A stretch of 64,000 nt of DNA from Candidatus Nomurabacteria bacterium (GCA_028286645.1 JAQBRF010000002.1:58518-122517), one strand, 5' to 3'. Positions 1 through 41,755 are shown, counted from the first letter of the stretch. Numbers and translations: made by a program. Notes: generated from the letters alone by a model not told the origin.

Positions 1-790
1 CAGCAAACCACATACCTCTTAAAAGGTTGAACTCAGAAAGATTATCAGAAAGTTTTGGTAAATTGTTCATTTGATAGACCTCATCAATTCTTCCTGTAAG
101 TAAGCTTTTTTGCTCAGGCGTGAAATTGTATAACCGATAAAATTCATATTCAGAAGATTCAGGAAACCAATTTAAATGCTCTATCATTCCGCCAATGTCA
201 TACCCAAGAGGACCTGAAAAAGAGTCTTCAAAATCTATAACCCCATTTGGATATATATTAAATGGTCCAAAATCGCCATGACAAATAACGAAAGGTATGC
301 GTTCTAACTTCCTTTGAACCTGTGTATAGGCTTCTAGTATTTTTTCTTTGTATTCTGGCAGTTCTTCACAGAGAAGATCTAAATGAATTGCTTTTGTAAA
401 AGCATACCATTTCTTATTATTAGTACACGTTTTCAGCTGCGCTTCTGTGAAGCGGACACATACTTTAATGTAGTTATCAAATGTATCATCAGAAATAACC
501 CCATTTAAAGTGACTTCGTCTCTAAATATAAGGCCAAAATGTTTTTCTCCAAGTGATTCTTCTATGTAGAATTCCATTCCATCTATCTTTCCTTCTTCTA
601 TAAGTTTGGGCACTGGGAAACCAAAAGATTCTAACTTTTTATGAATTACTAAATTCTTTTGAACTTTTTCTTGATCCCCTATTCTGAGGTACTTGAGGCC
701 GGAAATGTATATAGCAGAATCACCACCACGCTGAGTATCTACATGCACGTACTTTTCTCCTTTGAGAGACAGTTCTTTTGGGAATTCCAT
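1..790 (-). CDS. Aminoglycoside phosphotransferase/choline kinase-like protein (3' end runs off the window)
   Basis: Manual translation from ATG at 790: MEFPKELSLKGEKY...ICHGDFGPFNIYPNGVIDFED (HGD..N and IDFE motifs). Not in the ORF track because it is truncated. Confidence 0.75.
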   Translation of the reverse strand, partial: MEFPKELSLKGEKYVHVDTQRGGDSAIYISGLKYLRIGDQEKVQKNLVIHKKLESFGFPVPKLIEEGKIDGMEFYIEESLGEKHFGLIFRDEVTLNGVISDDTFDNYIKVCVRFTEAQLKTCTNNKKWYAFTKAIHLDLLCEELPEYKEKILEAYTQVQRKLERIPFVICHGDFGPFNIYPNGVIDFEDSFSGPLGYDIGGMIEHLNWFPESSEYEFYRLYNFTPEQKSLLTGRIDEVYQMNNLPKLSDNLSEFNLLRGMWFA

Positions 791-900
791 TCATAAAGTA
801 TACCCTACCCTGCTCCTCACTATAATATGTGTGCTTTAGTGAATACTGTAGGAACCACTCACTTTAATAATATGGTAAAATTACCCTATCTATAATCACC

Positions 901-1572
901 ATGAAAATAAAGGATCAATACAACGAAATAGGTAAAAATTATTCCCACGATAACCAAACTTTTTTTAAAGAAAAGGGAGAAGTAGATTTCGGGCGACAAT
1001 TCATTTTAGACAATCTTAAAGAAGTCGAGAGTAAAAGCATCCTAGATGTAGGCTGCGGGGCGGGAGATGACATCATGATTTATGAAAAGATGAAGTTTGC
1101 AAAAGTTTTCGGTGTTGACCCTTCTCGACTTATGATTGATCAGGCACTTGGAAAGATCGCGCATAAAGAAAACGTTCAGATCGGTGACTATGAGAACCTT
1201 CCCTTCCCTGATAACAGTTTTGATTATGTCGTGGGGAGATTCTCACTTCATTATGTAGAAAATATAGATAATGCTTATAAAGAAGTTCTCCGTGTACTTA
1301 AACCTGGAGGCCAATTTATAGCTATTGCGGATCACCCGATGGCTGATGCCTTCGAGAAAAAGCGGTATGAAAAAAATGGGAGGACATACATAACCATTAA
1401 ACTATTTGATGGCACAATAGAAGTTACATTCCCTCTACATCTACTGGGTGAATATATATCTGACTACTTTTTAAAATCCTTTAGATTAATTCAATTCAAG
1501 GAGCACGTCGGATCAGAAAGAGAGGTTACTCACGTCCCAAATGCATTTGGCATTACCGCTAAGAAGATTTAA
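901..1572 (+). CDS. Class I SAM-dependent methyltransferase
   Basis: ILDVGCGAG motif I, LPFPDNSFD, RVLKPGG. Confidence 0.9.
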   Translation: MKIKDQYNEIGKNYSHDNQTFFKEKGEVDFGRQFILDNLKEVESKSILDVGCGAGDDIMIYEKMKFAKVFGVDPSRLMIDQALGKIAHKENVQIGDYENLPFPDNSFDYVVGRFSLHYVENIDNAYKEVLRVLKPGGQFIAIADHPMADAFEKKRYEKNGRTYITIKLFDGTIEVTFPLHLLGEYISDYFLKSFRLIQFKEHVGSEREVTHVPNAFGITAKKI

Positions 1573-2269
1573 TCAATTCAAAAGCATAGAATGCTCTCGG
1601 GTCATTTTCTAATTCTCTCTTTCCAATTAACTTATATTTAAATCCTGAACTTGTAGCAAGATTTAGCATATCGTCAATATTCCCAAAGTTAGATTGGGAG
1701 ATATATATCCTTCCAGTAGGTTTAAGATGTTTTTGGAATCCTTCAAAAAGTTTTTTGTGTACTACCAGATTTGTATCTTTTATAGTTTGTTCAATGAATT
1801 TCCTATTTTCATCTTTAACTTTTCTGTCACTAAAAGGAGGATTGCATGTAATAACATCAAATTTCTCGTTCTGTTTTAGCGCAGAGAATACATCAGAGAC
1901 TCGACCTTCTGTCACATTCTCAACATTAAATCTTTTAGCATTAATATTCACCGTTTCAATCGCTTTTGGATTGATATCTAATGCTACTACTTTCCTAGCA
2001 CCCTTTAGAGCAGCAAACACTGCGATTACCCCTGAACCGGTACATACATCCAGCACTTCATCTGTAGGATGTATGACCATATTATTAACTATTTCTTTAC
2101 TATCATCATGCGGCCAAAATACACCTTTCAAAACTCTAAAGGTTTTATCAAGATAGGCCACCTCCACTCCTTCTTCGGGAATATTCTCTAACTTTTTAAA
2201 TATATTTTCTCGCTCTCTTTCTATTCTCTCCTGCTCCTTATCCGTAAGCCTCTTTATTTCTAGTTCCAT
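1559..2269 (-). CDS. HemK/PrmC-like (MTS family) methyltransferase
   Basis: VLDVCTGSG and FDVITCNPPF motifs. Confidence 0.85.
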   Translation of the reverse strand: MELEIKRLTDKEQERIERERENIFKKLENIPEEGVEVAYLDKTFRVLKGVFWPHDDSKEIVNNMVIHPTDEVLDVCTGSGVIAVFAALKGARKVVALDINPKAIETVNINAKRFNVENVTEGRVSDVFSALKQNEKFDVITCNPPFSDRKVKDENRKFIEQTIKDTNLVVHKKLFEGFQKHLKPTGRIYISQSNFGNIDDMLNLATSSGFKYKLIGKRELENDPRAFYAFELIKSS

Positions 2270-2311
2270 TGAAAATGTATCAGCGTCAATTAATGTGAAT
2301 CTAAATTGAAT

Positions 2312-3421
2312 CTATTTTTCTGATTTACTAATTTTCCCATTAATAAACTGCGCTCTTATTGGTAACGGCATAAAATTGTGGGAATCATCTACAGTATACG
2401 CGCTTGTAATCCCTTCAAAAGAATTAAGAGATTTTAAATATTTTGTAACTTCTTCTTTAGTGGTTATGTTATTGTCGGCCAAGTTCTTTAGCATTAGCCC
2501 TATGTCAATGGCAAAAGATTCAAATCCTGCGGGTTCTCTGTTGTTTCTTTTGATATAATCATTTTTAAACTCTGTAGCATATTCTCCTGTATTAAATGGA
2601 GTGGTCATGGTATAAACTTTTTCGGCAAGACCTGCAAGTGCTTCCGGAGTCCCTGGATTAAGAAGTACTCCCAAGACATCATAAATTGGAAGATTTATCC
2701 CTGCTTCTTTAGCTTGGACCATTATGCCTTTCCACTGGCTGGTCGGTATAGCTATAATCCCGATCACCTGTGGATTTGCTTGTTTAACTTTTGCTAGTTG
2801 GGTCCGGAAATCTGTATCTGTATCTTGAAATGTCTCAATAGTAACTTTTATTCCGGCAGAATTCAGCTTGGGAACAATCAAATCCGCAGTTGATTGGGCT
2901 CCTTCGTTTTTGGCCTGGAGTAAAGCAACGTGAGTTATTTTTTGATCAACTATTCTCTCTACAAAGAAATCAGCGAACTGTTCAGCTGTCCAGAATATTC
3001 TATATGCATAGTCGTTGTTTTTACTTGTTGCATTCATTGCAGCAACAAATGAAATAATAATTGGGGTTTTACTTTGCTGCGCCAAAGGGATTATGGGTAC
3101 GGTTGCTTTTGATATTGCTGAAACAAGAATATCGACACCATCTACTGTTGTAAGCTTTTGAAACGCAGCCACTCCACCTGCAGCATCTCCTTTACTGTCT
3201 TCATAAATAATTTTAATTTTCTTGTTTCCTCCCACAACAGAATCCATCCCCTTTTTAAAATACTCTCCGTATTGTGCGGTGGGTCCTGTAAAAGGAAGAG
3301 ATGCTCCGACCACAAGAATATCGTTACCTTTGCTTTCTCTAAAACCCAATAATTTATAAATACTAAATATTATAACTACCAACAAAACTAACATTAGAAT
3401 GTATTTGGTTGTTTTATTCAT
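2312..3421 (-). CDS. ABC transporter substrate-binding protein, branched-chain amino acid (LivJ-like) family
   Basis: N-terminal anchor; VGASLPFTGPTAQYG, YEDSKGD, TDFRTQLAKVK, FEGIT motifs. Confidence 0.85.
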   Translation of the reverse strand: MNKTTKYILMLVLLVVIIFSIYKLLGFRESKGNDILVVGASLPFTGPTAQYGEYFKKGMDSVVGGNKKIKIIYEDSKGDAAGGVAAFQKLTTVDGVDILVSAISKATVPIIPLAQQSKTPIIISFVAAMNATSKNNDYAYRIFWTAEQFADFFVERIVDQKITHVALLQAKNEGAQSTADLIVPKLNSAGIKVTIETFQDTDTDFRTQLAKVKQANPQVIGIIAIPTSQWKGIMVQAKEAGINLPIYDVLGVLLNPGTPEALAGLAEKVYTMTTPFNTGEYATEFKNDYIKRNNREPAGFESFAIDIGLMLKNLADNNITTKEEVTKYLKSLNSFEGITSAYTVDDSHNFMPLPIRAQFINGKISKSEK

Positions 3422-3569
3422 AAACCAAAGTATATCACTTCTGCGGTACGGATTATTCTGTCTAAAAGCTATTGATTTATATGCCTAAATAATCTGTATA
3501 CTACAGCGGACGACTTATTTTCTTAGCTTATTTTCAATCTGTAGGAAATAGAAGGACTCTTGTGGGAGG

Positions 3570-3788
3570 TTATAGGAACTTTTGTATTAACCAACTAATT
3601 AAAAATGTAACTACAAATATCCCCACAGCCCACGGTAACGCAATTATCCAAGCAAAAGAAGGAGGGTTGCTAGTTATAGGATCATTTCCTGAGGCTATGT
3701 GGTCGGCAATTCTTTTATATTCAATAAAATAGATGCTAACAAATGTCAGCAATGCTATGACCAGAGAAATAATAAATGATATTTTCAT
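3570..3788 (-). CDS. Small two-TM membrane protein
   Basis: Start reassigned to MKISFII (TATACT 7 nt upstream); two hydrophobic segments. Confidence 0.65.
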   Translation of the reverse strand: MKISFIISLVIALLTFVSIYFIEYKRIADHIASGNDPITSNPPSFAWIIALPWAVGIFVVTFLISWLIQKFL

Positions 3789-3937
3789 AATTAAAAGTAT
3801 ATCAGGCCTTACCTCTCTCCTCCACACTATATTTGGCCCATTCGCGACTACACTCAGGACACTAAAATTTAAACTTCTGTGGTGGACTCCATTATTACTT
3901 AGGAGCGAGTTAGAAAATAAGTTACTCCTCCTCCTGT

Positions 3938-4498
3938 TTACACTGTATCTTTAATAAATACTTTCATCACGATTATAAACAATGTGTGAAGTACCACTGG
4001 TACAACCAAACTACCAGTAACGTAAAAACTGAATCCCAAAAACATTCCTGCCATAAAAGTCATAGTAACGAGTTTCCAGTTCCATTCAGTAAGTCGAAAG
4101 CCTTTTGCTCCGTTTAAAACATGGGCAAGTCCAAAAAATAATGAGGACAAAATTATCGAATTAGGGGCGTCAAGGATTGAATAAAAATATGTCTGTACAA
4201 ATCCTCTGAAAATAATTTCTTCTGGCACTGCAATTAATAGACCTGCGTACAAAATAATTATATGTAATTTAGATAAATTTTTTCTATTTAAACCAATAAC
4301 CCCGAATTTCAAAAAGTAATTTATAGCAAAAAAGATAATGAAAGCACAGATTGTTATTGGAAGTAAAAACACTAAATCTTTCGTACTAAACATAAAGAAA
4401 ACTTGTGGTGATTTCATAAAAATGAAAAAATACACGCAAAAAAGAACATATATAGAAACTATAAAATTATGATACCTAGATTTAAATAGAGCTTTCAC
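3938..4498 (-). CDS. CPBP/Abi (CAAX protease-like) intramembrane metalloprotease
   Basis: PEEIIFRG, SSLFFGLAH and VLH motifs. Confidence 0.9.
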   Translation of the reverse strand: MKALFKSRYHNFIVSIYVLFCVYFFIFMKSPQVFFMFSTKDLVFLLPITICAFIIFFAINYFLKFGVIGLNRKNLSKLHIIILYAGLLIAVPEEIIFRGFVQTYFYSILDAPNSIILSSLFFGLAHVLNGAKGFRLTEWNWKLVTMTFMAGMFLGFSFYVTGSLVVPVVLHTLFIIVMKVFIKDTV

Positions 4499-4707
4499 TT
4501 TAGTGAATAAAGTATACCAGTTCCACTCTATCTACAATTCGCTAAGGATATGCAAATGTTGTAACTAAAAATTCCCTGTTGATTCAGGAGATTTTTAGTA
4601 ATTATTCATTGCTGTGGTGTAGTGGACTCCATTATTTACTTAGGAGAAAGATGGGTTAGAAAATAAGCAGTACCCTTGTAGTAGGTTATAGGAACTGAGA
4701 TGGGGGT

Positions 4708-5316
4708 TTACCAAGGTCTCGGGCGTTCCCTTTTAGCCCGCGCTTCAATTTGTGGAGCCTCTTTGATTAAATCTTCTTCGGATTTACCGGACACTTCTAG
4801 ATACCGCTGCTTTCTCCAGTATGTTGCCCATTCCATCAACCAGTCGACCTCCTTAACAAACCGATCTTCAGAAAGCGTTGCGTCCTTGAAATCTTTCCTA
4901 AGAACTAGTTGAGGCATACCCGAGTTTAAAGGTTGTTCATTTATATAGAAATAACCCTCGCCAAGCGTAGAAGGCTCACGATCTCCCGCCCTTTTAACTT
5001 CATCAAAAAATTCTTTTCTTTTAATCATGAGGTGGGCATCATTTACTACAAGACCAAACACTGAAAACTGTCCATCGTTTGCGGAGTAACTGAACTCGGC
5101 AGCTCCGAGTATCACTTTGAAATCCTGTTGGTCTTCTTTAAGAGAGACGTTATCTCCTATTTTCTTCCCATAGGCGGTTACATATTTTTTGGCTTCTTCG
5201 TTTGTCATGTGTTTTGGTACATTATTAGATGTTTGTATATTAAATCCTTTTTTATAATACATAAAGCCTGCACCTATAAGGAGCAATATGGCCACAATTA
5301 TTAAAGACTTTTTCAT
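4708..5316 (-). CDS. Hypothetical secreted/anchored protein, paralog of 6467-7123
   Basis: Signal/anchor MKKSLIIVAILLLIG; shares C-terminal EE.LIKEAP.I...RP..W with 6467-7123. Confidence 0.7.
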   Translation of the reverse strand: MKKSLIIVAILLLIGAGFMYYKKGFNIQTSNNVPKHMTNEEAKKYVTAYGKKIGDNVSLKEDQQDFKVILGAAEFSYSANDGQFSVFGLVVNDAHLMIKRKEFFDEVKRAGDREPSTLGEGYFYINEQPLNSGMPQLVLRKDFKDATLSEDRFVKEVDWLMEWATYWRKQRYLEVSGKSEEDLIKEAPQIEARAKRERPRPW

Positions 5317-5441
5317 ATTCAATCAAAGTATATCAGTAATTAACCGCATTCTTCACTGTGGTTAGTGGGCTATAAAGAACTTCTTTATTGCTTAGGAACA
5401 TCCTCTCATCACCCTATATTTTATGTAGGACATAAACAGGA

Positions 5442-5672
5442 TTAGAACTCATGAAAAAGAGAATAGAGTAAATACCCTGCTGAAACAATTCCTACAATTA
5501 CCGCAATTATCATCAAACTTATATCCCAAATTCCATTACAAGGAAATGAATTTAAAGAGTTTTGGGTGCAGGGTACTACCTTATCGATTATATGTCTTGA
5601 GAAGAGCGCCCTATTACCGATGATAAATAAAATAGCTGAAACTACAAGACTAATAATTGATATTTTTATCAT
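5442..5672 (-). CDS. Small membrane protein
   Basis: Two hydrophobic segments with a Cys pair; TATACT 6 nt upstream of ATG. Confidence 0.65.
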   Translation of the reverse strand: MIKISIISLVVSAILFIIGNRALFSRHIIDKVVPCTQNSLNSFPCNGIWDISLMIIAVIVGIVSAGYLLYSLFHEF

Positions 5673-5776
5673 ATTTGAAGTATATCAGTTCGCTAACGTT
5701 GATTGCTAAGTATCGAACACAATCTTTAACCCTTTGGCTACACAGTAAAAATTAGAGCAGTCCCACTATGGCAGTA

Positions 5777-6022
5777 TTAATTATCAAGTACTTGAGAAAT
5801 TAGCTCGATGAAGTCCTTAGCCCTCTTTTTTTGCTCAACCGATAAACTTTCTTCTTTTATTAATTCTTGCAAATAAAAACGGACGCCCATTAAAGCTTCA
5901 GATCCTAATGAAGCACCTTCAACAACTGTGTTAATTTTATTTTGCCAAGCGTTTAAACCTTTTTCTCCCAATTCTGCGGTAAAGTTTCTAACGTCATCAT
6001 AAAAGTTACTTGGAAGAGTCAT
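5777..6022 (-). CDS. Small hypothetical protein
   Basis: 81 aa ORF; TATACT 6 nt upstream of ATG. Confidence 0.65.
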   Translation of the reverse strand: MTLPSNFYDDVRNFTAELGEKGLNAWQNKINTVVEGASLGSEALMGVRFYLQELIKEESLSVEQKKRAKDFIELISQVLDN

Positions 6023-6125
6023 CCAAGAAGTATATCAGTTCCCAAGGAACTATTACCATATAGAAAACCAAGATTTTTAATAATCCTTGGATGTCATTAT
6101 GACTTAGACAGAAGTTTCGTGAATT

Positions 6126-6359
6126 TTAATGGTAAACACCGTTTTTGATAAACCACAGGAACCACACTAAAAAAATAAGTACGATCACGATAAGCGCTCG
6201 TCCCAACCACACAAGCCATATAGGGTGATAAAAGATTAGCAATATTGCTAACCCTGCCAAGACAAATGCAATGGGAACAAATGGAAAGGTATTCCACCAG
6301 AACGACCATGCCGCAACTGCAAATAGAATAATTATAGTAATTAGCACAGATTTTGACAT
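6126..6359 (-). CDS. Small three-TM membrane protein
   Basis: Highly hydrophobic 77 aa ORF with the shared upstream module. Confidence 0.6.
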   Translation of the reverse strand: MSKSVLITIIILFAVAAWSFWWNTFPFVPIAFVLAGLAILLIFYHPIWLVWLGRALIVIVLIFLVWFLWFIKNGVYH

Positions 6360-6466
6360 AGCGTTAATTTTGTATGCTATAAGTATACCAGCTCCTACCT
6401 CTCCTCCATATTATATTTAATGTAGTTATACCTGTCCCTCTCTCTAGTTAGCAGCTGGAAGGAAAA

Positions 6467-7123
6467 TTACCATGATTTTGGTCTATTCTTTAGCATGAAT
6501 TCATTTATTCCAGGAGCTTCTTTAATAAGTTCTTCTTCTGTTTTTGCATTTATTTCATTAAATCTGTTTACAAACCAATAATCTGCATCTGAGAGGAGCC
6601 ACCCTATTTGAATTTGTAGGTTTTTCCCATTAGTAATAGGCGCTGTGTACGTTTTTGTTAGAAGGAGCACATCCGGATTCAAATCAAAAAGTGGCTCGCG
6701 CAAAAGTTCAAATTGAGCCTCGCCATACATCATGGTGGTATATTCACGCTGTCCAATACGCACTAATCGGTCCCATAGCACGGGATATTTACTTAGTGTT
6801 TTGATGTCATATCTTACTAATCCTGAGACCAATAATTGCTTTTTTTCTGCATCATACCGAAAGATAGCTCCTTTTACGCGTACTGGCAGACCCTTTGGAA
6901 GGTCACTTTCCAGAGAACCGGTAATGTTCAAGGGAGCAGCATTAGATTCTTTAATCCATAGTTTTACTATAGCTTGAGCATCTTCAATTGTTAGTGTCTC
7001 AGCTTGAGATTGTTGAGTTATATGCTGTAATTCGAGTTTTGGAATAGGTGTGCTAGATCTTTTATAAAAATAAAAGGCGCCTAACATTAATATAATTATT
7101 ACAATTATTCCTACTTTATTCAT
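6467..7123 (-). CDS. Hypothetical secreted/anchored protein, paralog of 4708-5316
   Basis: N-terminal anchor; shared motifs GA.F.Y, GLV..D, WL...A.YW, EELIKEAP. Confidence 0.7.
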   Translation of the reverse strand: MNKVGIIVIIILMLGAFYFYKRSSTPIPKLELQHITQQSQAETLTIEDAQAIVKLWIKESNAAPLNITGSLESDLPKGLPVRVKGAIFRYDAEKKQLLVSGLVRYDIKTLSKYPVLWDRLVRIGQREYTTMMYGEAQFELLREPLFDLNPDVLLLTKTYTAPITNGKNLQIQIGWLLSDADYWFVNRFNEINAKTEEELIKEAPGINEFMLKNRPKSW

Positions 7124-7325
7124 TTCATAAGTATACCAGCACTTACCCTATGCTGCTTCACGCTATATTTAGTCCATTTGCGACTACGCTCAGGACACTA
7201 AAATTTAAACTTCACTTCGTTCAAATAAATTAAAGTGTGTGCTGTGGTGGACTCCATTATTTACTTAGGAAGGAAGTGAGCTAGAAAATAAGCAGTATCC
7301 TTGTGGTAAGGTATAGGAACCGAGA

Positions 7326-7769
7326 TTAATCAGAAAAAGTAGAAAAGAAAGAAATCTCTCCTGTTTTCTTATTTAGCGTTAACCCCTGATACTCAGCTGG
7401 AATTCCTTCAGATTTTGGAGATCGTTCCCCCAGCTGTTTCTCAAGTTGACCAAGCAATATGTCGCCGCCTCTAAATAATCTAAATTGACTATTAGAGATA
7501 CTCGCACCTAATGGGTTCAATTTTGTACTTAGTTCATGGATAAACCCTTCCACATCTTCTGTTTCTAAACCAAAAGATAGATGGGCCGCTCCTGCAACTT
7601 GAACTCCAGGATCATAAGCGGTCAATACGGCACAAGACCCTCCCGGTAAAACCTCTAATGTTTCTACTTTGCTATTTGGACCTATGACTTCAATAGAGTT
7701 AGTTAGTACTTCTATTGATCGTCCCTGTTCACTTTGATTTTCAAAAAATTGTTTCGGCTCTTGTTCCAT
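7326..7769 (-). CDS. CheD-like (deamidase fold) protein
   Basis: GGSCAVLTAYDPGVQVAGAAH resembles the CheD LGSCV...YDP....GG.AH motif; start reassigned to MEQEPK. Confidence 0.5.
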   Translation of the reverse strand: MEQEPKQFFENQSEQGRSIEVLTNSIEVIGPNSKVETLEVLPGGSCAVLTAYDPGVQVAGAAHLSFGLETEDVEGFIHELSTKLNPLGASISNSQFRLFRGGDILLGQLEKQLGERSPKSEGIPAEYQGLTLNKKTGEISFFSTFSD

Positions 7770-7836
7770 CCCTAAAGTATACCCTACTCCTCTCCACACT
7801 ATATTAGTGTGCTATGTAGAGATTACACGAATTGCA

Positions 7837-8367
7837 TTAACTAAAAAGGGAATTGTAAGCTGATTCTAAAGAAGCATTTCTATCTGGATAAATATCAAAA
7901 TAAGGAAAATTGTTTTTAGATGCCTCTTGTTCTATCTTTTTACTTTTTTTAATAAAGTATTCTGGAAGAGTGTTTTGCTTTTCTTGTGATAAGTTACTTA
8001 CCCAGTCTGACTTAGGGTCACTCTTTTTTATATCTTCCAAAGTTATGTTGCTTGTACCCAAGAAACAACACCTCAATTCTATCTTCTCTTTAAGAGATGT
8101 GACTTGCTCGGGGGTAAACAGGTCTCCTTCTATAACATAATCCTCATATTTGTTTTGAAGAATTTTCAAAAATTGCAGTAAATAAGGAAAAAACACTTCT
8201 GCCTTTTTATCTTCTTCCAAAGCTTTAAGCCCTAGTTGGGTGGGTGAAGAATCTAAAAGATTCCTTATTACATCAGTTGAAATATTAGAAATATGCTTGC
8301 GTTCAAGCATGAGAGCCGCCAACGTACTCTTTCCGACTCTTGCTGTTCCTCCAATAAGATAAATCAT
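7837..8367 (-). CDS. P-loop kinase (2-phosphoglycerate kinase/AAA_33-like)
   Basis: MIYLIGGTARVGKSTLA Walker A, STDVIR, YVIEG; start reassigned. Confidence 0.75.
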   Translation of the reverse strand: MIYLIGGTARVGKSTLAALMLERKHISNISTDVIRNLLDSSPTQLGLKALEEDKKAEVFFPYLLQFLKILQNKYEDYVIEGDLFTPEQVTSLKEKIELRCCFLGTSNITLEDIKKSDPKSDWVSNLSQEKQNTLPEYFIKKSKKIEQEASKNNFPYFDIYPDRNASLESAYNSLFS

Positions 8368-8474
8368 TGCATAAGTATACCCTACTCCCCACCACCCTAT
8401 TGAAATACATATAAGGATGTGTGCCCTTCGGACTACCTTAGGACAATCAATTTTCAACTCAGACGATATTAGGA

Positions 8475-9407
8475 CTATTTTATTTTCTTTTTGAGAAATT
8501 TCAGAACATGAGTATCTGTATATGTAGCTATATCCAGTTCTTTCGAAAAGATATTGATTAGATTTTTCTTTTCTGCTAGTGAGATTTCATTACTGCCAGG
8601 AACATGTACAGAGGCAAGGGCGATATTTTGGTGTTCTTCAATAAAAGAACGTATTTCCTCTCCTCCATCTTTAAAAAGTCCATCGTCAAGAATGTCCTGT
8701 CCATCGTACGAAGCTCGGACAAGCGCATTAAATACTTGATCTTCGGGAACGCCGGAATAGACATGTATCTTGTGTATCAAAATATCTATAAGCATTCTTC
8801 CAATATCATACGTTCTATAATATCCTTCTTCTATCATAGAGCTATTTCCTGATCGTCTAAGATATTCTTCCAGCACTTTATCAGCAATCTTTTCTACCAG
8901 CCCTTCGTTAAAAGCAACACGTGTCCTATTAAAATTTTCATCATTACTAGTCAAACCAGAGACCTCAGCTGAGATTGATGTACCGTCCTTTTCCTCAAAA
9001 TCCTCATACCCGGAAAATTGAGTAGTATGTACCTGTTCGTGAATGAGCAGTTTGAGGGTTATTAATCTCTTTCTCAACTTCTCATTCAAGATAGGTGTGA
9101 TGAATTTGAAATTTGCAGGATTGAAATGCAATGCCGATCGTTCCCCCATTTTTTCCCCAGTTGATTTGTCTACAATAGGCTCTATACCCGCTGTTGCCGC
9201 AAAATAAAATGCGTCATAGAAATATTTTATGTCTTCCTTTTTCACAAATTCCATATCCTTCTCATCTAGTCCCGCTTTCTTATATATTTCTTCGAATATG
9301 GTGCGCAGTAGATCAAAATCCACCCTCTCCAAGTCCTCTTGAATCTTTTCCTTGGATCCTTTAAAAACTTCCTCTTTTGTTTTTTCCCAAAGACTTTTAC
9401 TTTCCAT
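8475..9407 (-). CDS. Putative zincin metallopeptidase
   Basis: LIHEQVH followed by FNEGLVE (gluzincin pattern). Confidence 0.65.
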   Translation of the reverse strand: MESKSLWEKTKEEVFKGSKEKIQEDLERVDFDLLRTIFEEIYKKAGLDEKDMEFVKKEDIKYFYDAFYFAATAGIEPIVDKSTGEKMGERSALHFNPANFKFITPILNEKLRKRLITLKLLIHEQVHTTQFSGYEDFEEKDGTSISAEVSGLTSNDENFNRTRVAFNEGLVEKIADKVLEEYLRRSGNSSMIEEGYYRTYDIGRMLIDILIHKIHVYSGVPEDQVFNALVRASYDGQDILDDGLFKDGGEEIRSFIEEHQNIALASVHVPGSNEISLAEKKNLINIFSKELDIATYTDTHVLKFLKKKIK

Positions 9408-9611
9408 CACCAAAGTATACCTTACTCTCCTCTATACTATTTGGTACCGTAGCGGACTCCATCAGTTAGGAGCAGAGCGACTTAGAAAATAAGCACCACC
9501 CTGGTGGTAGGTTATAAGAACTGGGATTAAAAAATAGAAACTATTTAATACTAAACTTTAGTCTCTCAGATTTTTCATTCATATAAATATCTATTTTAAA
9601 CAGTTGCAAAC

Positions 9612-10145
9612 TTAAATAAACACATTTAAATATTTAGTAACCGCAAGAAATTCATCATAAAGATTATGCTCTTTTAAAACAGAAATAAATAAAGGATGTG
9701 TGTACCCATCAGCAATAAATTCATGAATATCTTTCCTGTAATTAAAGAATGTTAACCCATCCTTCTCTATCCCGTCAGGAAAGATATCTTTTATCTTTTC
9801 AAAAAAAGTTTTTAGTTCTTGTGTAACTTCTTGTCGAAATTCAATTGCATGAATAATTTCATGCCTCTTTGTTATTTCAGATGTACCAGAGTAAAATAAT
9901 AATGCGTCAAGTCTATCTACATAAGCTCCATTAGCTGTTTTACTAGGAGCTGTATTAAGGTAATAGGCTGGAATGTCGCGCTGTAAATTAAAACCAAATT
10001 CCTTGGCTAAAGTTACAGCATTTTCTACTTTCATTATCTGCATCTTAGTTTGAGTTCCGTCTTTCTCAGTCAAAGAGAAAGTATCTCCTTCTTTTTTCCA
10101 AGGGACTAACGGGTCTCTCACTAATAATGTGGGTTGTTCTTCCAT
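9612..10145 (-). CDS. Putative zincin-like protein
   Basis: RHEIIH and downstream HEFIAD; start reassigned to MEEQPT. Confidence 0.55.
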   Translation of the reverse strand: MEEQPTLLVRDPLVPWKKEGDTFSLTEKDGTQTKMQIMKVENAVTLAKEFGFNLQRDIPAYYLNTAPSKTANGAYVDRLDALLFYSGTSEITKRHEIIHAIEFRQEVTQELKTFFEKIKDIFPDGIEKDGLTFFNYRKDIHEFIADGYTHPLFISVLKEHNLYDEFLAVTKYLNVFI

Positions 10146-10327
10146 CTCCAAAGTATACCCTACCCTGCTCCACACTATGTTAAAAGACTCAGGTGCGCCT
10201 TACCGAACCTTCATTCGTTTCACTCCTTTTGGTTTTAAGAACCCACGGTTCTCAACGCTCGTAAACTCGCTGCTCTCCTCCACATGAAAACTCCCGTTTT
10301 CTTGACACCTTTCCCACCAGTAGACAC

Positions 10328-10369
10328 AAGTTCAAATCCCGATAGGTATACCTATCGGGATTTGAACTT
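10328..10369. repeat. Perfect 42-bp palindrome made of two head-to-head tRNA-His T-arm-like sequences
   Basis: aagttcaaatcccgataggta|tacctatcgggatttgaactt. Confidence 0.9.
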
Positions 10370-10578
10370 TCTGTGTGCCTACCGGGACTTACTTGGAACA
10401 CCATAGAAAAACAAATAACTTCGTAGAAAAACATCTTTGTTTCTGACATATATAAAGATTACATTTCTAATAAGCCCCAATTTATATGAGTCCTCGCCCA
10501 TTTGTCGTAAAAAGGTATTACCGTATCTGATATTAAACACCATTCGTATCTAAATCTACTTACTGCTATTATTTGCTT

Positions 10579-11514
10579 ATGCAGAAACGACATCATTTTA
10601 TACCCGATTCCTATCAGAGAAATTTTATTAACAATGAGGGAAAAGTATGGGTATTAGATAAAGAAAAAAAACTTTTTCAGACTAATCCTACAAACATCTT
10701 TGCGGAGGCGTACTTCTATTTACTTCCTGGCACTACCGAGGAAGAACAGTTGCGAGTAGAAAATCTGTTAGGTCTTATCGAAACCGACTTCGGGGCAATC
10801 TATAAGGAGAAAATTAATATAGGGCTTCAGATGACGCAAATGGAAAAAGGCAAACTTTCATACTTTGTTGCATGTATGTACCTGCGGACTAAATTTATGC
10901 GTAATCAGAATCTTGATATGTATAAAAAAATGAGGTCTGCAATGCAGGAGTGGGGAGAACATTATAAAAACATGTCTGATGAGCAGAAAGAAACATTTGC
11001 TTCTCTTCACCATTCAAGTGATAGTGCGACTATTACGATAGATGACATGGACTATGCTATCGAAAATAATAATGAAATTCATACTGAACAACTTATATCC
11101 CTTCTTCCAGAGATTGCTGATATTTTATTTAATATGGAGTAGTTTTTTTTGAGCCCTCAGAATACCAACAAAACTTTTATAAGTTCTGATAATCCTTTTT
11201 GTATGATAAGACCAGAAGCTATTGCAAAATTTGGTCTCAATAAATTTGGAAGTCTACCTGGTCTAAAGGCTAAAGACGTAGAAGTTTCACTTCCTCTTTC
11301 ATCTACTAAAATGCTATTTATGAGTTGGAACTTAAAATCAGAGGTGTTCATGAAAATACCAGATGATAATGTCGATGTATTTAATGCTCGAAGTAGATTA
11401 CATGCTCATGATAAATTAATAGCCTCGAATAAAGAGGTCCTTCAGGAGATTGTTGATAAATCAGACGGAAAAGATAAGAACGATTTTAATATGTTTGATT
11501 TCGAAACTAAGTAG
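10579..11514 (+). pseudogene. DUF4238-like protein interrupted by one in-frame TAG
   Basis: KRHHFIP..Y N-terminus; FISSDNP and LPLSS in the second ORF; both ORFs in the same frame, TAG at 11140-11142. Confidence 0.7.
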
Positions 11515-11541
11515 AGGATTAGACTTTATATACTCTGTAAG

Positions 11542-11733
11542 TTACTTAAACTTACAGTCAGTTAAGTACCCTCTTTCGTCGATAACTGCCATGCCCACTT
11601 GCTTACGGCACCTTATAACATCTTGATTTGAATCTCCTATGTGTACACCTGGGTAATGCGCCTCTTTAGGTTCATTTGCTTTTATAGAAAAAACCCCAGC
11701 AATTAATACAATAATTATTAAAAAATACTTCAT
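11542..11733 (-). CDS. Small secreted protein
   Basis: Signal peptide MKYFLIIIVLIAGVFSIKA; two Cys. Confidence 0.55.
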   Translation of the reverse strand: MKYFLIIIVLIAGVFSIKANEPKEAHYPGVHIGDSNQDVIRCRKQVGMAVIDERGYLTDCKFK

Positions 11734-11755
11734 ATTTGCATTTTGGAAGCAAAAA

Positions 11756-11832
11756 GCCCCCAAGGTTGACGACCTTTCGGCCGCCCATATCCGTTTCCAG
11801 ATACGTCTCACTACAAACAAACTCTTGGAACC
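11756..11832 (-). ncRNA. Candidate structured RNA leader (multi-way junction with two GAAA tetraloops)
   Basis: Minus strand: ccaagagtt..gtatctg-GAAA-cggatat..ggcggcc-GAAA-ggtcgtc..aaccttgg. Confidence 0.4.
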
Positions 11833-12026
11833 GTAATTACTCAATGTGATAATAGTTTTGCAACTACTTGTTATGGAAACCATGGGGGCCTACCGGGAAT
11901 TTCTTCGACAAGTATTTGTTCGCCGCCGCTCACAAATCTCGCCTCCCGCCCCTCGCCCATTTTCCTTGCTAGAAAAATATGGCTGTGGTCTTCGAATCCG
12001 GACGTAAACAAAGCAGTTTGTTTACT

Positions 12027-12083
12027 TAGGCACACCAAATACAAAAACGGCCATAAAGACCGTTTTTGTATTTGGTGTGCCTA
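12027..12083. repeat. 24-bp perfect inverted repeat including the tRNA-His 3' end
   Basis: taggcacaccaaatacaaaaacgg / ccgtttttgtatttggtgtgccta. Confidence 0.9.
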
Positions 12084-12173
12084 GTCGAGACACCGGTCGA
12101 ACTTCTCGCGAAATTGCAGAGATGTTTTTAAGCACTATCCCGCAGGCAACGTCTCGACGTCCTGATGTCCCTA

Positions 12174-12365
12174 CTACACAGCAGAATCTTCGTCTGCAGT
12201 AGTTCGCTTCTGTCTTTTTTCTTCTTGATAGTCATTCCAGAGAAGCAGCAGAAAGTCACTCATAGCTGCGTCAGCTTGACGAAGTTCTTCTTCGGTGAAG
12301 TCCGGGAAGATCTCGCGAATCACTGGTGCGACTTCCATATCTTCGGGTAGGCGTTTGGGGTGCAT
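12174..12365 (-). CDS. Small hypothetical protein
   Basis: C-terminal part of ORF 12174-12560 (IREIFPDFTEEELRQAD...); start uncertain. Confidence 0.4.
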   Translation of the reverse strand: MHPKRLPEDMEVAPVIREIFPDFTEEELRQADAAMSDFLLLLWNDYQEEKRQKRTTADEDSAV

Positions 12366-12548
12366 GGGGCGATGGGAGGCTCTGAGGTTATTAGGCAGAG
12401 CTAACGCTATCCATAGCACGATATTGACAAATGTCCAAAATATGATTGGATATAAGTAAGTAGTTCTTGTCCTCAGTATTTGGTTGCGGAATGAAGTTCG
12501 AGACTTAAGCAGTTCGCGAATTTCTCCCCTAACCAAGACGAGGTCAGC

Positions 12549-13013
12549 ATGCAGATCCACGAGAAGATTGGAAAGTTGGGTGCATCGGTATTCCTGATGT
12601 CAATGATCCCGAACACTCCCGAAGGGAACGAAGCGATCGACACTATGCTTGCGAAAGCGGGCGCGCAGATGCTGCTGTGGTGCAACGCGCTTTACTATCC
12701 GACGATGGAGTTCGCCGAGTGGGTGCATCAACAAGAAACTCGCATTGAGGAGCGTTTCAAGGCAAACCCTGCTTTGGATCGCATGAAAAAAGAGGCGGAT
12801 TTCCTTCTCGAAGCCCACTGGGATCAGGAGTTAGAAGAAGCTCGCGAGGAATACGCAAACGATCCCGAGCATCGAGCTATGGTGGCCCGAATCAACGAGA
12901 AGATCGAGGAGCGGCTCGCCGCGGATCCGGAACTACGTCGGGAGTTTGAGGAAGGACTGGCAGCACATATCGCTCTTGTCTGCGAACAAAGCGCCCGCAA
13001 ACGGATTCACTAA
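12549..13013 (+). CDS. Hypothetical acidic helical protein (GC-rich, foreign)
   Basis: 154 aa ORF followed by the hairpin aggcggccc..gggctgcct and a T-run. Confidence 0.6.
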   Translation: MQIHEKIGKLGASVFLMSMIPNTPEGNEAIDTMLAKAGAQMLLWCNALYYPTMEFAEWVHQQETRIEERFKANPALDRMKKEADFLLEAHWDQELEEAREEYANDPEHRAMVARINEKIEERLAADPELRREFEEGLAAHIALVCEQSARKRIH

Positions 13014-13071
13014 CATTCTCCTTCTGGGAAAACACTTCAGGCGGCCCTCCCGGGCTGCCTTTTTACTTTTG

Positions 13072-13329
13072 ATGCCAAATAGAGAAAGTATCCGTCAAGA
13101 ACACACTTTGCAAAAGTGTACAAGGCTGGTCGAGGAGAAAACGCTTACTCTGTAAGTCTCATTTGCAATGCAACAAATTACTTTCTCCGCAAGACTACAA
13201 AAATTGCCAAATTTTCCTATTAGTGTGCCTACTCGGGACACCGGTCGAACTTTGAGTGAAATTGCCGAGTTGTTTTTAAGCGTCATTCCGCAGCCAACAT
13301 CTCCACGTCCTAACATCTCTACTCACTAA
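13072..13329 (+). pseudogene. Possible degenerate C-terminal fragment of a site-specific (serine-type) recombinase spanning an att-like site
   Basis: RLVEEKTLTL*VSFAMQQITFSARLQKLPNFPISVPTRDTGRTLSEIAELFL; the tail is repeated in-frame at 12074-12202; family assignment from recall, not searched. Confidence 0.35.
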
Positions 13330-13602
13330 CAGCGGCCCTTCAAAATTGACAGCTTGAGTATGCGTGTTAGGCTGAAATTGGATATCGCTTTACATATCCT
13401 CATAGTCGAGCCCCATGAACTCCGCAGCCCGGAGTGCCAACGACCTCCTATGACCGCCATTGCGGCTTAGCCCCTTCCGAATCGGAGGGGCATTTTTGTT
13501 TCTCAGAGTTGCCTCTCGGTCCCAATATGTAACCGTTACGCGCTTTGAGGTTTTGTCTATGCTAAATGTGGTCGATATTATTAGCCAAGACCAAGAACAC
13601 AT

Positions 13603-13788
13603 ATGGAAACACTAGGAGACCGCTTCCTTGCGCCAACCGCTCGGGAGAACCTCTTTGAGTCAATAGACTATCTTCACGAATCGATTCGTAATGCACGCGA
13701 ATGCGTGTACGACATCGAGCGAAGCATAGACGCTTCGCTTGATGAGATTCGAGGAAAGAAGCCTGAGGCAGCTCAAGAGAAGAAGTAG
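13603..13788 (+). CDS. Small hypothetical protein
   Basis: 61 aa ATG ORF, helical and charged. Confidence 0.4.
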   Translation: METLGDRFLAPTARENLFESIDYLHESIRNARECVYDIERSIDASLDEIRGKKPEAAQEKK

Positions 13789-13875
13789 GGTGTAGCTAAT
13801 ACACCCCTCTCACGAAGACGAATATCGTGGGGGACATGGATTTAAGTTGCAGAAACGCAATGCGATTTGAATCTG

Positions 13876-13948
13876 TGTGCCTACCGGGATTCGAACCCGG
13901 ACTGAGGGCTCCACAAGCCCGCGTGCTAACCATTACACTATAGGCACC
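13876..13948 (-). tRNA. tRNA-His(GTG)
   Basis: GGTGCCTATAGTGTAATGG...GGGC-TTGTGGA-GCCC...GGTTCGAATCCCGGTAGGCACA; CCA not encoded. Confidence 0.95.
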
Positions 13949-31869: not shown

Positions 31870-32191
31870 AAGAACCCCCAATGTTGAACTTACTACACAA
31901 CACTACAATTTAGTGCAAACTATGTCAAGTCGGACTTTATTATTTATTTTCCTGGAAAGTGAAGTAAGTCCACGAGCATGCTTATAAAGAAGGATCGGAC
32001 TCAATTACAATAAAAACACCGGGCGCTTTCGCGACCCGGTTTTGCTGCGTGTTTAAGGCTACTGCATATTGCACGGCATCGCCCGATTAGTAATCGGGTC
32101 GATTAGGATGAATGTATTAATCCGCCGGCAGTAGTTTTCCTCACCTAGCATCTAAACCTATTCCCCAAATGAAACTTAGGAGTCGATTTTC

Positions 32192-32470: not shown

Positions 32471-32591
32471 ACTAGCCTCACGGTTGGTTGAACTTACTTA
32501 ATAACACTATAATTTAGTGCAGATTATGTCAATATAACTTTATCTAAGTATTTTCCTGGAAACTGACAGCTGAAAACTGTAGACTACCTAT

Positions 32592-39637: not shown

Positions 39638-41755
39638 TTACACGAGTGACTTTTTGTCATCTTTGTAAGAAGCATATACGCTCTTAGCAAGAATGAAGAT
39701 AATGAATACTATCGCTATTAAAGCTAACCATTCAATGAGAGTGTCTGGAAGGAAACTTAATCCGCTTCCTCCTCCGATAACTTTCTTCGCTCCTGTATCT
39801 GTCGTAGCTGAAGTTGCTGGAGTCGCAATTGATCCTACGACATATGCTGTTACTTCGTCTTGAGTGTTTGACCCAGGGACTGTGTAGTTAACATATGATG
39901 TTGTAACAATTGATTTTCCTATCGGAGCATTTTTTGTAACCTTTCCTGTCCAAGTAAGTGTTCCTGTACTTCCGGCTTCTATTGAATCTAGATTAAGCGT
40001 TAATGTATGTGTCGCTATATCGTATGATCCGGCTGAAGTTGAAGTGAATTCAATTTCTTGCGGAATTGTTACTTTAATGATAACTCCGTTTACTTTTACG
40101 TCTGAAAGATTCTTATAAGTTAGTTTATATGTAACCGTTGATTCAGAACTTAGATTTCCAGATACTTTTTCTAATTGTAGAGAAACAAGTTTCTCTCCAT
40201 TTTGAAGCATTGTTGCAGAACTTTGGCTTGTTGTAGTTACGATTGAACCATCCACACAAACCACTTCGTTCTTTTTCACAACTGGCTTTTTCGCGATAGT
40301 CTTTGTTACTGTTACTGGTTTTACATATGTTACGGCCTTGCTCTTAGTTACGAAGCTTACGATTTCACCCTTAACTAGTCCATACTGATTTTGCATAACT
40401 GCTCTACAGTAGTATTTAGTTGCTGGCTTAAGGTTTGCTAGAACGTTTGAGAAGTTTACAGTTGAAGCTGATCCGATCTGAGCTGACGCTGTTGTGCGTC
40501 CTAGATTGGCAGTTTCACCGTATTCAAACCATCCAGTTGACTGTGCGCCATTAGCGATTAATCCTATTCCATTACATCTTGCTGAGTTGATAGTAACTTC
40601 TGTTACAACGCTTGTTACGACGTTATTGAACTTAACTACTGGAGGAGGAATTACTACTGGAGCTTGTGGACACTGTTGGTATACAGGAATACTTGTTCCG
40701 TTTGGACAGAACTTGAACTGTTGAGCACAAGTCTGTGTTGCAGGAATCCGCGATCCATCCCAACATGTCTGGTAAGTAATAACTGGAGGGTTAATGATTT
40801 GCTGACAAACTCCATTTACAAAGTTTGTATTTGAGGGACACTGAGTAACTGTAGTTACTGGAAGTGTGGTTGTACGTACACAAGATCCATTTATAGGAGC
40901 CTGTCCATCAGCACAAATTGTATTTGTAACTACTGGAATTGTATTTGTACGAGTACATGATCCATTGACTGGAAAACTTCCATCTGAACAACGAGTAGTC
41001 GTTACAGTGGGAATAGTAGTAATGATCGGAGTAGTTGGAGTAGTAATTACAGTAGGAGTGGTTATAATAGACGGAGTTGTATAACCTGTCCATGAAGTTG
41101 TCGGATAAACAACTGATGGAGTTGAAGTATAAACTGATCCATATGAAGTTCCGTATCCTGTAGAACCGTATGCTGTGGTTCCATATCCTATAGCTCCGTA
41201 AGTTGTGGGGTATGAAGAATAACTAGGAGTATAAACACCGCTCGGCATATAAACCCCGTTAGGATAACTAGTTGTTGTATTCCATGTTCCTATATCATAG
41301 GATCCAGTAGGAGATACAGTAGTGGAATTCCATGTTCCAGAGTCATACGAAGGCACGTTGGTATTCCAACTTCCAGTGTCATACGAAGGCACGTTAGTGT
41401 TCCAAGAACCTGTATCATAACTAGGCACGTTGGTATTCCAACTTCCTGTATCGTATGATGGTACGTTGGTATTCCAACTTCCAGTGTCATACGAAGGCAC
41501 GTTGGTATTCCAACTTCCTGTATCGTATGATGGTACGTTGGTATTCCAACTTCCTGTATCGTATGATGGTACGTTGGTATTCCAACTTCCTGTATCGTAT
41601 GATGGTACGTTGGTATTCCAACTTCCAGTGTCATACGAAGGCACGTTAGTGTTCCAAGAACCTGTATCATCCATACCGTCCGCAAATGCGAAAAGTGTAG
41701 ATTGCTGAATAGCGATAACTAGAAACAGTGTGATAATTTTTTTTGTTGTTTTCAT
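39638..41755 (-). CDS. Large surface protein: signal peptide, 12-aa tandem repeats, Cys-rich CxDG repeats, Fn3-like and DUF11-like domains, C-terminal TM
   Basis: Start at MKTTKK; (Y)DTGSWNTNVPS x9; WFEYG..LKPATKYY; YKLTYKN..VTIP. Confidence 0.8.
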   Translation of the reverse strand: MKTTKKIITLFLVIAIQQSTLFAFADGMDDTGSWNTNVPSYDTGSWNTNVPSYDTGSWNTNVPSYDTGSWNTNVPSYDTGSWNTNVPSYDTGSWNTNVPSYDTGSWNTNVPSYDTGSWNTNVPSYDTGSWNTNVPSYDSGTWNSTTVSPTGSYDIGTWNTTTSYPNGVYMPSGVYTPSYSSYPTTYGAIGYGTTAYGSTGYGTSYGSVYTSTPSVVYPTTSWTGYTTPSIITTPTVITTPTTPIITTIPTVTTTRCSDGSFPVNGSCTRTNTIPVVTNTICADGQAPINGSCVRTTTLPVTTVTQCPSNTNFVNGVCQQIINPPVITYQTCWDGSRIPATQTCAQQFKFCPNGTSIPVYQQCPQAPVVIPPPVVKFNNVVTSVVTEVTINSARCNGIGLIANGAQSTGWFEYGETANLGRTTASAQIGSASTVNFSNVLANLKPATKYYCRAVMQNQYGLVKGEIVSFVTKSKAVTYVKPVTVTKTIAKKPVVKKNEVVCVDGSIVTTTSQSSATMLQNGEKLVSLQLEKVSGNLSSESTVTYKLTYKNLSDVKVNGVIIKVTIPQEIEFTSTSAGSYDIATHTLTLNLDSIEAGSTGTLTWTGKVTKNAPIGKSIVTTSYVNYTVPGSNTQDEVTAYVVGSIATPATSATTDTGAKKVIGGGSGLSFLPDTLIEWLALIAIVFIIFILAKSVYASYKDDKKSLV
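41345..41670. repeat. Coding tandem repeat, 9 x 36 bp
   Basis: ttccaa recurs every 36 nt from 41364 to 41652; only synonymous variation. Confidence 0.95.

Follow-up and report, generated by a model that had tools for sequence, protein, structure and literature searches.

Results

A row of short genes behind tRNA-His

We analysed a window of 64,000 nucleotides of DNA from Candidatus Nomurabacteria bacterium (GCA_028286645.1), which corresponds to C3:58,518–122,517 of an 863-kb assembly (G000) that is 98% complete. From a tRNA-His gene in this window, mostly minus-strand short genes run left to the window start and about 2 kb beyond it. We consider it probable that this array was built by repeated insertion behind tRNA-His, as a stack of small units with junctions that match the element-side arm of an attachment site for a large serine recombinase (LSR). 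The stack is read as now decaying because the assembly lacks an enzyme that targets tRNA-His. An earlier note on this DNA, made from the sequence alone, had described the region as an integron-like array of gene cassettes joined by four repeat modules, A to D. The tRNA-His (GTG) gene lies where that note placed it, at 13875–13947 on the minus strand with the array downstream, and its 3' end would be the target site, that is, the attB-side arm. The range of 1–13948 given for the array has to be extended, since profile matches and matches to the junction arm described below put the true left edge about 2 kb left of the window.

At its left end the window holds an APH-family phosphotransferase cassette (2–790, minus strand), whose own junction arm lies left of the window at C3:58378, and then two methyltransferases, one of them on the plus strand, and a periplasmic binding protein (901–3421), with no such arm between them. 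Next come a 72-amino-acid (aa) membrane protein (3570–3788), a CPBP (Rce1-like) protease cassette (3938–4498) and a 202-aa exported protein (4708–5316). Three small genes of 76, 81 and 77 aa (5442–6410) have -10 boxes, one module A at 6381 and no recognisable junction arm. They are followed by a 218-aa exported protein (6467–7123) that is a paralogue of the 202-aa one; the two stand in separate units and have no known family. Nearer to the tRNA lie genes for a 147-aa protein (7326–7769), a P-loop kinase-like protein (7837–8367), a 310-aa protein with an HEQVH motif (8475–9407) and a 177-aa protein with an HEIIH motif and no family match above the cut-off (9612–10145). Everything from the 72-aa gene onwards is on the minus strand.

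Pfam matches bear out the names that these genes had been given by inspection in the case of the APH phosphotransferase, the two methyltransferases and the CPBP protease, but the P-loop kinase has a sub-cut-off match only. The labels “CheD-like”, used for the 147-aa protein, and “zincin” came from motifs read by eye, and no supporting match to either was found in Pfam or NCBIfam.

A tRNA-end-like arm at the junctions

The flanks of tRNA-His were taken from 19 relatives (of 20 regions, L029, with 193 bp and a tRNA-Arg, was dropped). Beyond the arrays of these relatives stands a conserved, putatively oxidase-like gene, and wherever a genome covers the whole stretch from it to tRNA-His, the gene content in between is a different one. 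Several relatives share a conserved 33-bp arm, here named J, that opens with a tRNA-end core and resembles the end of tRNA-His. A 17-mer of J was found in 20 of 52 genomes of the same genus, often clustered on one strand, and in none of 43 other members of the family; its reversed control gave one match. An iterated J weight matrix over 34 loci counted 57 copies on one strand and one on the other, a count that is circular, as the matrix was trained on those loci.

A J model made from the relatives only, with G000 held out, was run over the 1.7 million positions of this genome. Its top two intact matches (C3:58006 and 58378) lie just left of the window, within the array. In the split form of the model, the top three matches genome-wide are window positions 7234, 4609 and 9439, in that order, and these split copies carry an insert of 53–57 nt where J of the relatives also has an insert (52–57 nt). 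J scores 15–25 bits in this array against 24–56 bits in the relatives, whose values are inflated by training; on these scores the J copies of this genome are decayed. A profile hidden Markov model of J from the relatives missed the window copies, which were found by the ungapped and split position-weight scans.

In about one fifth of the relatives' copies (13 of 60 matched, one of them spurious) a second motif, X, ends about 74 nt past the start of J. J plus X, as aligned for L013:1746–1824, L014:109–188 and 8 more, runs colinear with nearly all of the tRNA-His gene. Among 36 tRNAs this is the best match (34.5 vs 23.1 ± 3.1), and its score was reached in 0 of 500 shuffles. The cassette arm may descend from a copy of tRNA-His. 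Descent of X from the 5' half of the tRNA, taken alone, was not significant (rank 4 of 36; 21 of 500 shuffles), and a hairpin formed by J and X had no covariation support on either strand.

The spacer repeats as parts of one junction

The repeats listed in the earlier note are present in the spacers. The A copies at 795 and 10150 share a stretch of exactly 22 identical bp, and the degenerate copies of A, B and C/D were found where they had been placed. They are not four free modules, as had been proposed, but fragments, insertions and fusions of one junction.

Since the top three split J matches in this genome are the C/D sites, module C/D is best described as a J arm with an inserted hairpin. 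The three sites, all on the plus strand, are 7234–7326 (top split match genome-wide, 57-nt hairpin at 7252–7308), 4609–4701 (second, 57-nt hairpin at 4627–4683) and 9439–9527 (third, where J is divided into 9439–9456 and 9510–9527 by a 53-nt hairpin at 9457–9509). A further hairpin (3508–3566) stands at the same fixed position in a decayed J at 3500–3580 (plus strand), and this insert is nearest to the order-wide form of the family. The stop codon of the 72-aa gene does fall within module D, as had been noted, in the right half of this J. The family of this roughly 55-nt hairpin extends across the order (loci L031–L047): 10 of 300 other genomes of the order have copies that are not associated with J, and these often lie about 200 bp or less from a tRNA. 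A small mobile element with tRNA-end-like sites as its targets is one possible explanation, and the family may be similar to repetitive extragenic palindromic (REP) sequences.

Module A is, in our description, a genome-wide leaderless-type -10 box fused to the J-linked motif X, because the -10 box is in use throughout the genome and the X model ranks A copies high. Outside the array, 24 of 50 G[GA]TATACTT sites precede an ATG-led open reading frame (ORF), where a reversed-hexamer control gave 17 of 988, and within the array the -10 box stands 6–7 nt ahead of the start in 10 of 14 genes. The X model from the relatives has 6 of its top 8 G000 matches in the array, five of them A copies, and the top match genome-wide is the A copy at 7775–7811. 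This copy, like those at 8373–8400, 9413–9440 (before the 310-aa gene) and 10150–10178 (whose -10 box precedes the ATG of the 177-aa gene by 6 nt), is on the minus strand. Near the left end, an A copy (796–822) is followed from the core at 829 by a decayed full-length J, the whole spanning 796–861; this J ranks 42nd of 1.7 million positions and is weak taken alone.

Module B is tRNA-end-like and starts at the same GTGT core (8419–8462, plus strand); in G023 it sits between a cassette and tRNA-His. At 7129–7213 it follows directly on module A (A at 7129–7167, B at 7171–7213), and at 3795–3950 the order is A (3795), B (3836–3877), a truncated C (3878–3920) and X (3925–3950), the last in its usual place before a stop codon. 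A long left arm with promoter and hairpins, in a form common in the genus, occupies 4510–4608.

GTGTGC or GTGCGC, which had been compared with the tRNA-His 3' end, is found at 829, 7807, 8419, 10193 and 7237. The palindrome that had been reported at the end of module A is present at 7795–7811, where the A copy runs into a decayed core at 7807, but its perfect form occurs once only and lies off the centre of the inferred crossover. Likewise, the junction had been set at “cactat”, and the switch point is a few bases to the right, inside a shared TTGGTGT core. J is recognisable in only part of the spacers: none was found in 1572/2269/2312, 5672–5777, 6022–6126 and 6359–6467, and J candidates at 5352–5354, 7804 and 8416 score at background level.

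In a profile search of the whole genome, all 10 nhmmer matches of the extended module A at E ≤ 0.0015 fall within C3:56,835–68,699. Eight of these are the training copies; the other two are additional copies to the left of the window, and the match that ranks after them has E = 4.6. The best match of module C/D outside the array has E = 0.67, and module B has none there. Occurrence of the modules throughout the genome had been counted in the earlier note as evidence against its own reading. The extended A, B and C/D are confined to the array, but the 5' half of A, the TATACT -10 box, is genome-wide, so that such evidence was found in part. A GTDB scan for this genome's module A gave 5 single matches in unrelated taxa, which were taken as chance, and two metagenome scans for module A and module C gave 0 matches; since the scans with this genome's own repeats yielded no relatives, no near-identical strain was at hand for a comparison of gain and loss. 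Rfam gave only two tRNAs above threshold.

Large serine recombinases joined to tRNA-His and to J

The earlier note had suggested looking in the genome for a recombinase that acts in trans. No His-type LSR is present in this assembly, but an LSR stands at the same tRNA in relatives. In five genomes of the genus (G017, G024, G358, G352 and G367) an LSR gene reads into tRNA-His, and in G034, from outside the family, an LSR gene also ends in tRNA-His. G017, G024 and G034 represent 3 of the 19 tRNA-His loci; G358, G352 and G367 were found among 8 regions with the top LSR matches. Among the other LSRs of those 8 regions, four end at tRNA-Tyr, tRNA-Asp (two) and tRNA-Ser, and one, a broken copy in G358, ends in J. 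The G024 protein, encoded at L014:11144–12769, includes resolvase, recombinase and Zn-ribbon domains, and the LSR islands of G024 and G017 have J at their far end.

For three distinct LSR 3' ends, one genome shows a join to tRNA-His and another a join to J, and the switch between the two falls inside the shared TTGGTGT core. The best 2-bp centre of symmetry is the second GT, with a mean of 5.7 of 11 over 9 joins against at most 4.1 at the other 16 offsets; the symmetry is weaker in the J joins alone (3–5 of 11). In G375 one unit consists of an LSR 3' fragment alone between two J sites. The 14-mer of the tRNA-His T-arm is best placed at +5 in 10 of 10 of the relatives' J copies, for the right arm only, and the J copies of the window keep GAAC at the same place. 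PMC3783163 describes a zinc ribbon domain (ZD) motif that is shifted by 5 bp between attP (16–24) and attB (11–19), and the +5 shift of the T-arm motif in J therefore matches the attP/attB signature of LSRs given there. The ZD positions would match J if numbering starts in the central dinucleotide; the 5-bp shift is independent of the numbering.

The His-targeting elements at L011:16407–19611 (G017) and L014:9561–12769 (G024) are 66% identical in DNA over 3.3 kb. Both have an ORF of 57–59 aa and one of about 430 aa upstream of the LSR, which are candidates for directionality or replication factors; the cargo of the G024 element is type I restriction-like, by eye only. In G352 an LSR of another clade (L055:17707–19209), 33% identical to the tRNA-Ala LSR of G000, reads into a J arm, so that these stacks are fed by more than one LSR clade. 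A 540-aa ORF in the G366 array was considered and is not an LSR. As a separate observation, G000 has an island at C5:121,000–124,140 with a tyrosine recombinase-like gene and an LSR. The end of this LSR overlaps the start of a gene for a GTPase, which by eye is ychF-like, so that the target here is a protein gene.

Cassette behaviour of the units

In the relatives, a co-oriented gene stops within 120 nt after J at 51 of 56 sites, compared with 311 of 719 control intergenic positions. Of 49 J-bounded units, 30 hold one ORF, and the median unit measures 970 bp. Co-oriented single-gene cassettes that end at the recombination site are present in the relatives; in the window they can be recognised only in part. 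Seven protein families stand after J in at least two genomes beside different left neighbours. G023 and G366 share a 1.37-kb unit at 93.6% identity, with the match beginning at the J core. The CPBP unit of the window stands after J, with other neighbours, in G015 (71% DNA identity) and G361 (70%), and a two-gene unit has two copies in the G364 array and one in G003. Units that lack an integrase and keep their att sites stand in tandem behind tRNA-His. The serial capture pictured in the earlier note holds in the relatives insofar as each unit brings a gene, its own promoter and a tRNA-His-like arm; the note missed the enzyme class and the anatomy.

The tRNA-proximal 3.7 kb

A decayed tRNA-end element (10193–10328) that is common to G022 and G023 begins the tRNA-proximal 3.7 kb, in which all features are on the plus strand. 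It is followed by a hairpin with an 18-bp copy of the tRNA-His end (10327–10390; the hairpin adjoins an intact tRNA-His in G015 and G002), a DUF4238 gene with an in-frame stop near 11140 (10573–11514) and a structured tRNA-end element with a 24-bp perfect inverted repeat at its end (11888–12083), homologues of which stand directly behind tRNA-His in G005, G007, G010 and G002. The perfect hairpins at 10327–10371 and 12027–12083 are inverted T-arm or 3'-end sequence of tRNA-His, and the same hairpins adjoin intact tRNA-His in several relatives. Two tRNA-His-end arms of a second type (12075–12175 and 13223–13323) are 81% identical, carry the T-arm motif at an offset of 6 bp and not 5, and were absent from 400 other genomes of the order. 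A 154-aa ORF (12549–13013) lies in a GC-rich unit of 1.15 kb and a 61-aa ORF (13603–13788) in the 650-bp unit next to the tRNA; GC content is 49% in 12075–13875 and 36% in 1–10150.

Among sequencing runs, one DNA run (X1), possibly from the source sample, was found to contain this sequence, and no RNA run was listed; X1 was examined as contigs only. The contig that covers the stop in the DUF4238 gene shows no other letters there. A 137-nt contig of depth 4.5, in which 5 of 85 bases differ from the window, joins position 13884 to an arm of the 12085 type; it adjoins a variant of the 650-bp tRNA-proximal unit that is about 86% identical and leads into the 12075-type arm in place of the tRNA. At window positions 13519–13884, X1 contains a related population of low depth that is about 86–94% identical to the window. 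The joint would belong to this related population, as either a circle or another order of units, and it gives a weak hint of exchange at the core. Two other X1 joints, 3831–10311 and 10378–1, were rejected as artefacts; the contig runs left of the window into further repeat copies.

Outside the array, the window contains a 36-bp tandem repeat at 41287–41742 and a duplicated 46-bp AT-rich segment at 31883–31928 and 32487–32532.

Discussion

The locus is likely to have gathered genes much as an integron does, by an unrelated enzyme that is not encoded here. In the mechanism that we propose, a circle carrying J would recombine with the tRNA end at the GT dinucleotide. Insertion would restore the tRNA and push older units outward, so that an internal junction would consist of the left arm of the older unit and the J of the newer one. 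Each gene would be expressed from its own -10 box, 6–7 nt before the ATG, as a predicted leaderless mRNA. Gene-only units would be passengers unable to move by themselves, carried either by an LSR that acts in trans or along with a neighbouring LSR element. The J copies of this genome have drifted, and three of them bear the hairpin insert that makes them C/D; module B is a further tRNA-end element, and A is the product of a fusion between a -10 box and X. Catalysis, circles and mobilisation in trans are what we infer from the anatomy and the LSR joins. Going further, a tRNA-His-targeting LSR in Patescibacteria that checks mainly the tRNA/J arm and accepts left arms of various kinds may excise and insert self-promoted one-gene circles in trans and so be a counterpart of the integron; to this we give slightly less than an even chance.

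A number of observations weigh against repeated insertion by an LSR. No match to a His-type LSR was found in G000 at E ≤ 1e-30, and none of the three LSRs that it has exceeds 27% identity to the enzymes of G024 and G017; they end at tRNA-Ala, tRNA-Leu and a protein gene, so that the link between this array and an LSR rests on homology of decayed sites. Several spacers of the window have no recognisable J. Of 32 cross-locus alignments, only 2 have a start that lies, in both partners, no more than 4 nt from the core; the best cassette pair stops matching 80–127 nt before the next core, which makes the arms mosaic. Homologues of the 310-aa gene (8475–9407) in three genomes (G007, G297 and G024) and of the kinase-like gene (7837–8367) in one (G010) have no adjacent J. 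The two tRNA-proximal arms with their 6-bp offset have no known partner enzyme, and no circles or skipped units of the part of the array with A and J were seen in the X1 contigs. The left arms are heterogeneous, and no matching shifted distal motif was seen by eye in those of the nine joins. According to PMC3783163, standard serine integrases recombine neither two attP-type sites nor attL again; given that attP is normally paired with attB only, reuse of the tRNA junction needs relaxed recognition of the left arm, and the varied left arms suggest such a relaxation.

These points have to be set against other ways of producing the same row. The units could be eroded remnants of larger autonomous LSR islands, the one-gene units being immobile and the stack no device for gene exchange. 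LSR fragments and LSR-end remnants do persist as left arms in some units, in G358 an intact LSR island precedes a broken LSR that ends in J, and the sites of the window are themselves decayed; moreover, the three-step route, in which accretion is followed by deletion down to a cis-mobilizable element, is described for tandems of integrative and mobilizable elements (IMEs) and cis-mobilizable elements (CIMEs) (PMC5704250) and for integrase-less ssrA islands (PMC3146451). We nevertheless regard this origin as unlikely: the same one-gene units recur across genomes and positions, as does the two-gene unit of G364 and G003, J is near-identical in units without any LSR remnant, and stops set tight against J in 51 of 56 cases are not expected of random erosion. 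Alternatively, an LSR may have seeded the junctions, with cassettes now exchanged chiefly through homologous recombination between the conserved arms and without a site-specific step, in the way of minimal mobile elements. The mosaic left arms would fit this, as would shared cassettes that lose their match at the promoter and not at the next core, arrays that persist in genomes without a close match to the His-type LSR, and cargo homologues that occur elsewhere without J. The two closest pairs, however, have their left boundary at the core, 10 of 10 tested copies preserve the 5-bp geometry typical of LSRs, and arms of 30–100 bp are generally short for RecA-driven exchange, all of which makes swapping of this kind a still less probable account than erosion.

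That the repeats are expression modules (terminator plus promoter, in part a decayed tRNA copy) duplicated locally, with an incidental likeness to att sites, seems to us very improbable. It would explain why the -10 part of A is genome-wide and why J plus X fits tRNA-His best of 36 tRNAs; it does not lead one to expect LSR ends that join J at the same core as the tRNA or a J at the far end of two LSR islands, and X alone ranks only fourth for tRNA-His, with no covariation for a J–X structure on either strand. A true integron or an array driven by Xer, with a tyrosine recombinase of this genome acting in trans, is largely refuted and has hardly any probability left. A XerC/D-like gene does exist at C3:138 kb, but the best score of the IntI model TIGR02249 is 75 bits, against a cut-off of 265, for a protein that scores higher as XerC/D, and a simple RYYYAAC...GTTRRRY pattern gave 0 attC box pairs in 1–13948, where the genome mean is 1.0 per 14 kb; both results agree with the absence of intI and attC noted from the sequence. 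The 2-bp-centred symmetry of the site and its joins to LSR genes also speak against such an array. A likeness of the 10170–10200 spacer to dif/Xer sites, seen by eye, was dropped once the LSR joins appeared.

We thus return to repeated LSR insertion at tRNA-His, under which the array functions in the manner of an integron array without being one: it is a decayed, recombinase-less stack of LSR cassettes. With integrons and clusters of attC sites lacking integron-integrases (CALIN), the array shares a co-oriented row of single genes, stops that abut the site and a newest unit next to a fixed platform. Unlike integrons, it has no IntI or attC, serine and not tyrosine chemistry, a tRNA as platform and, in place of Pc, promoters of its own.

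The nearest known systems are the Dehalococcoides ssrA islands described in PMC3146451: tandem islands of an LSR (DsiB, a CcrB-like serine recombinase), 15 of them without an integration module. Like the present units, they stand in tandem behind a stable-RNA gene and are bounded by copies of its 3' end, with an LSR of about 540 aa there; they differ in being multi-gene and spread over up to 100 kb, and in their 20-bp direct repeat and six-gene module (PMC3146451). The units here have a median of about 1 kb, one self-promoted gene, a diverged arm of attP type and a crossover by the CCA end of the tRNA. With serine integrases such as that of Listeria A118 (LI), as presented in PMC3783163, the system shares the central dinucleotide, inverted symmetry, the 5-bp shift and a three-domain LSR. 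It departs from their rule in the reused tRNA-side junction, the tandem P-type arms and the variable left arms, and no directionality factor was identified. IMEs and CIMEs accrete in tandem at tRNA 3' ends and decay there, as reviewed in PMC5704250; serial insertion occurs at the target-side att, and older elements lose the integrase and keep their sites, as here. Unlike them, our gene-only units are of integron-cassette size and recur between genomes; no relaxase or conjugation genes were noticed in these units, and no search was aimed at relaxase or oriT. Tandem LSR islands of which some lack an integrase are therefore known, and what is new is the single-gene, self-promoted form shared across a genus, of which we found no description in a literature search that left most subscription journals outside.

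Ultra-small bacteria have streamlined genomes, yet their gene content is very variable, and to our knowledge few routes of gene gain have been described for them. A tRNA-docked cassette stack built by an LSR is a concrete and testable route, for which an enzyme, both arms and a predicted crossover are identified. Should an LSR use the junction that it has produced a second time, it would bend the directionality rule of attP with attB and could serve for serial insertion of DNA. If the units never move alone, the stack would be a compact case of the known accretion of islands. If, as proposed above, an LSR does move one-gene circles in trans, members of the genus would share and reshuffle a pool of cassettes, and the array in our window would be a platform that fell idle after the loss of its recombinase.

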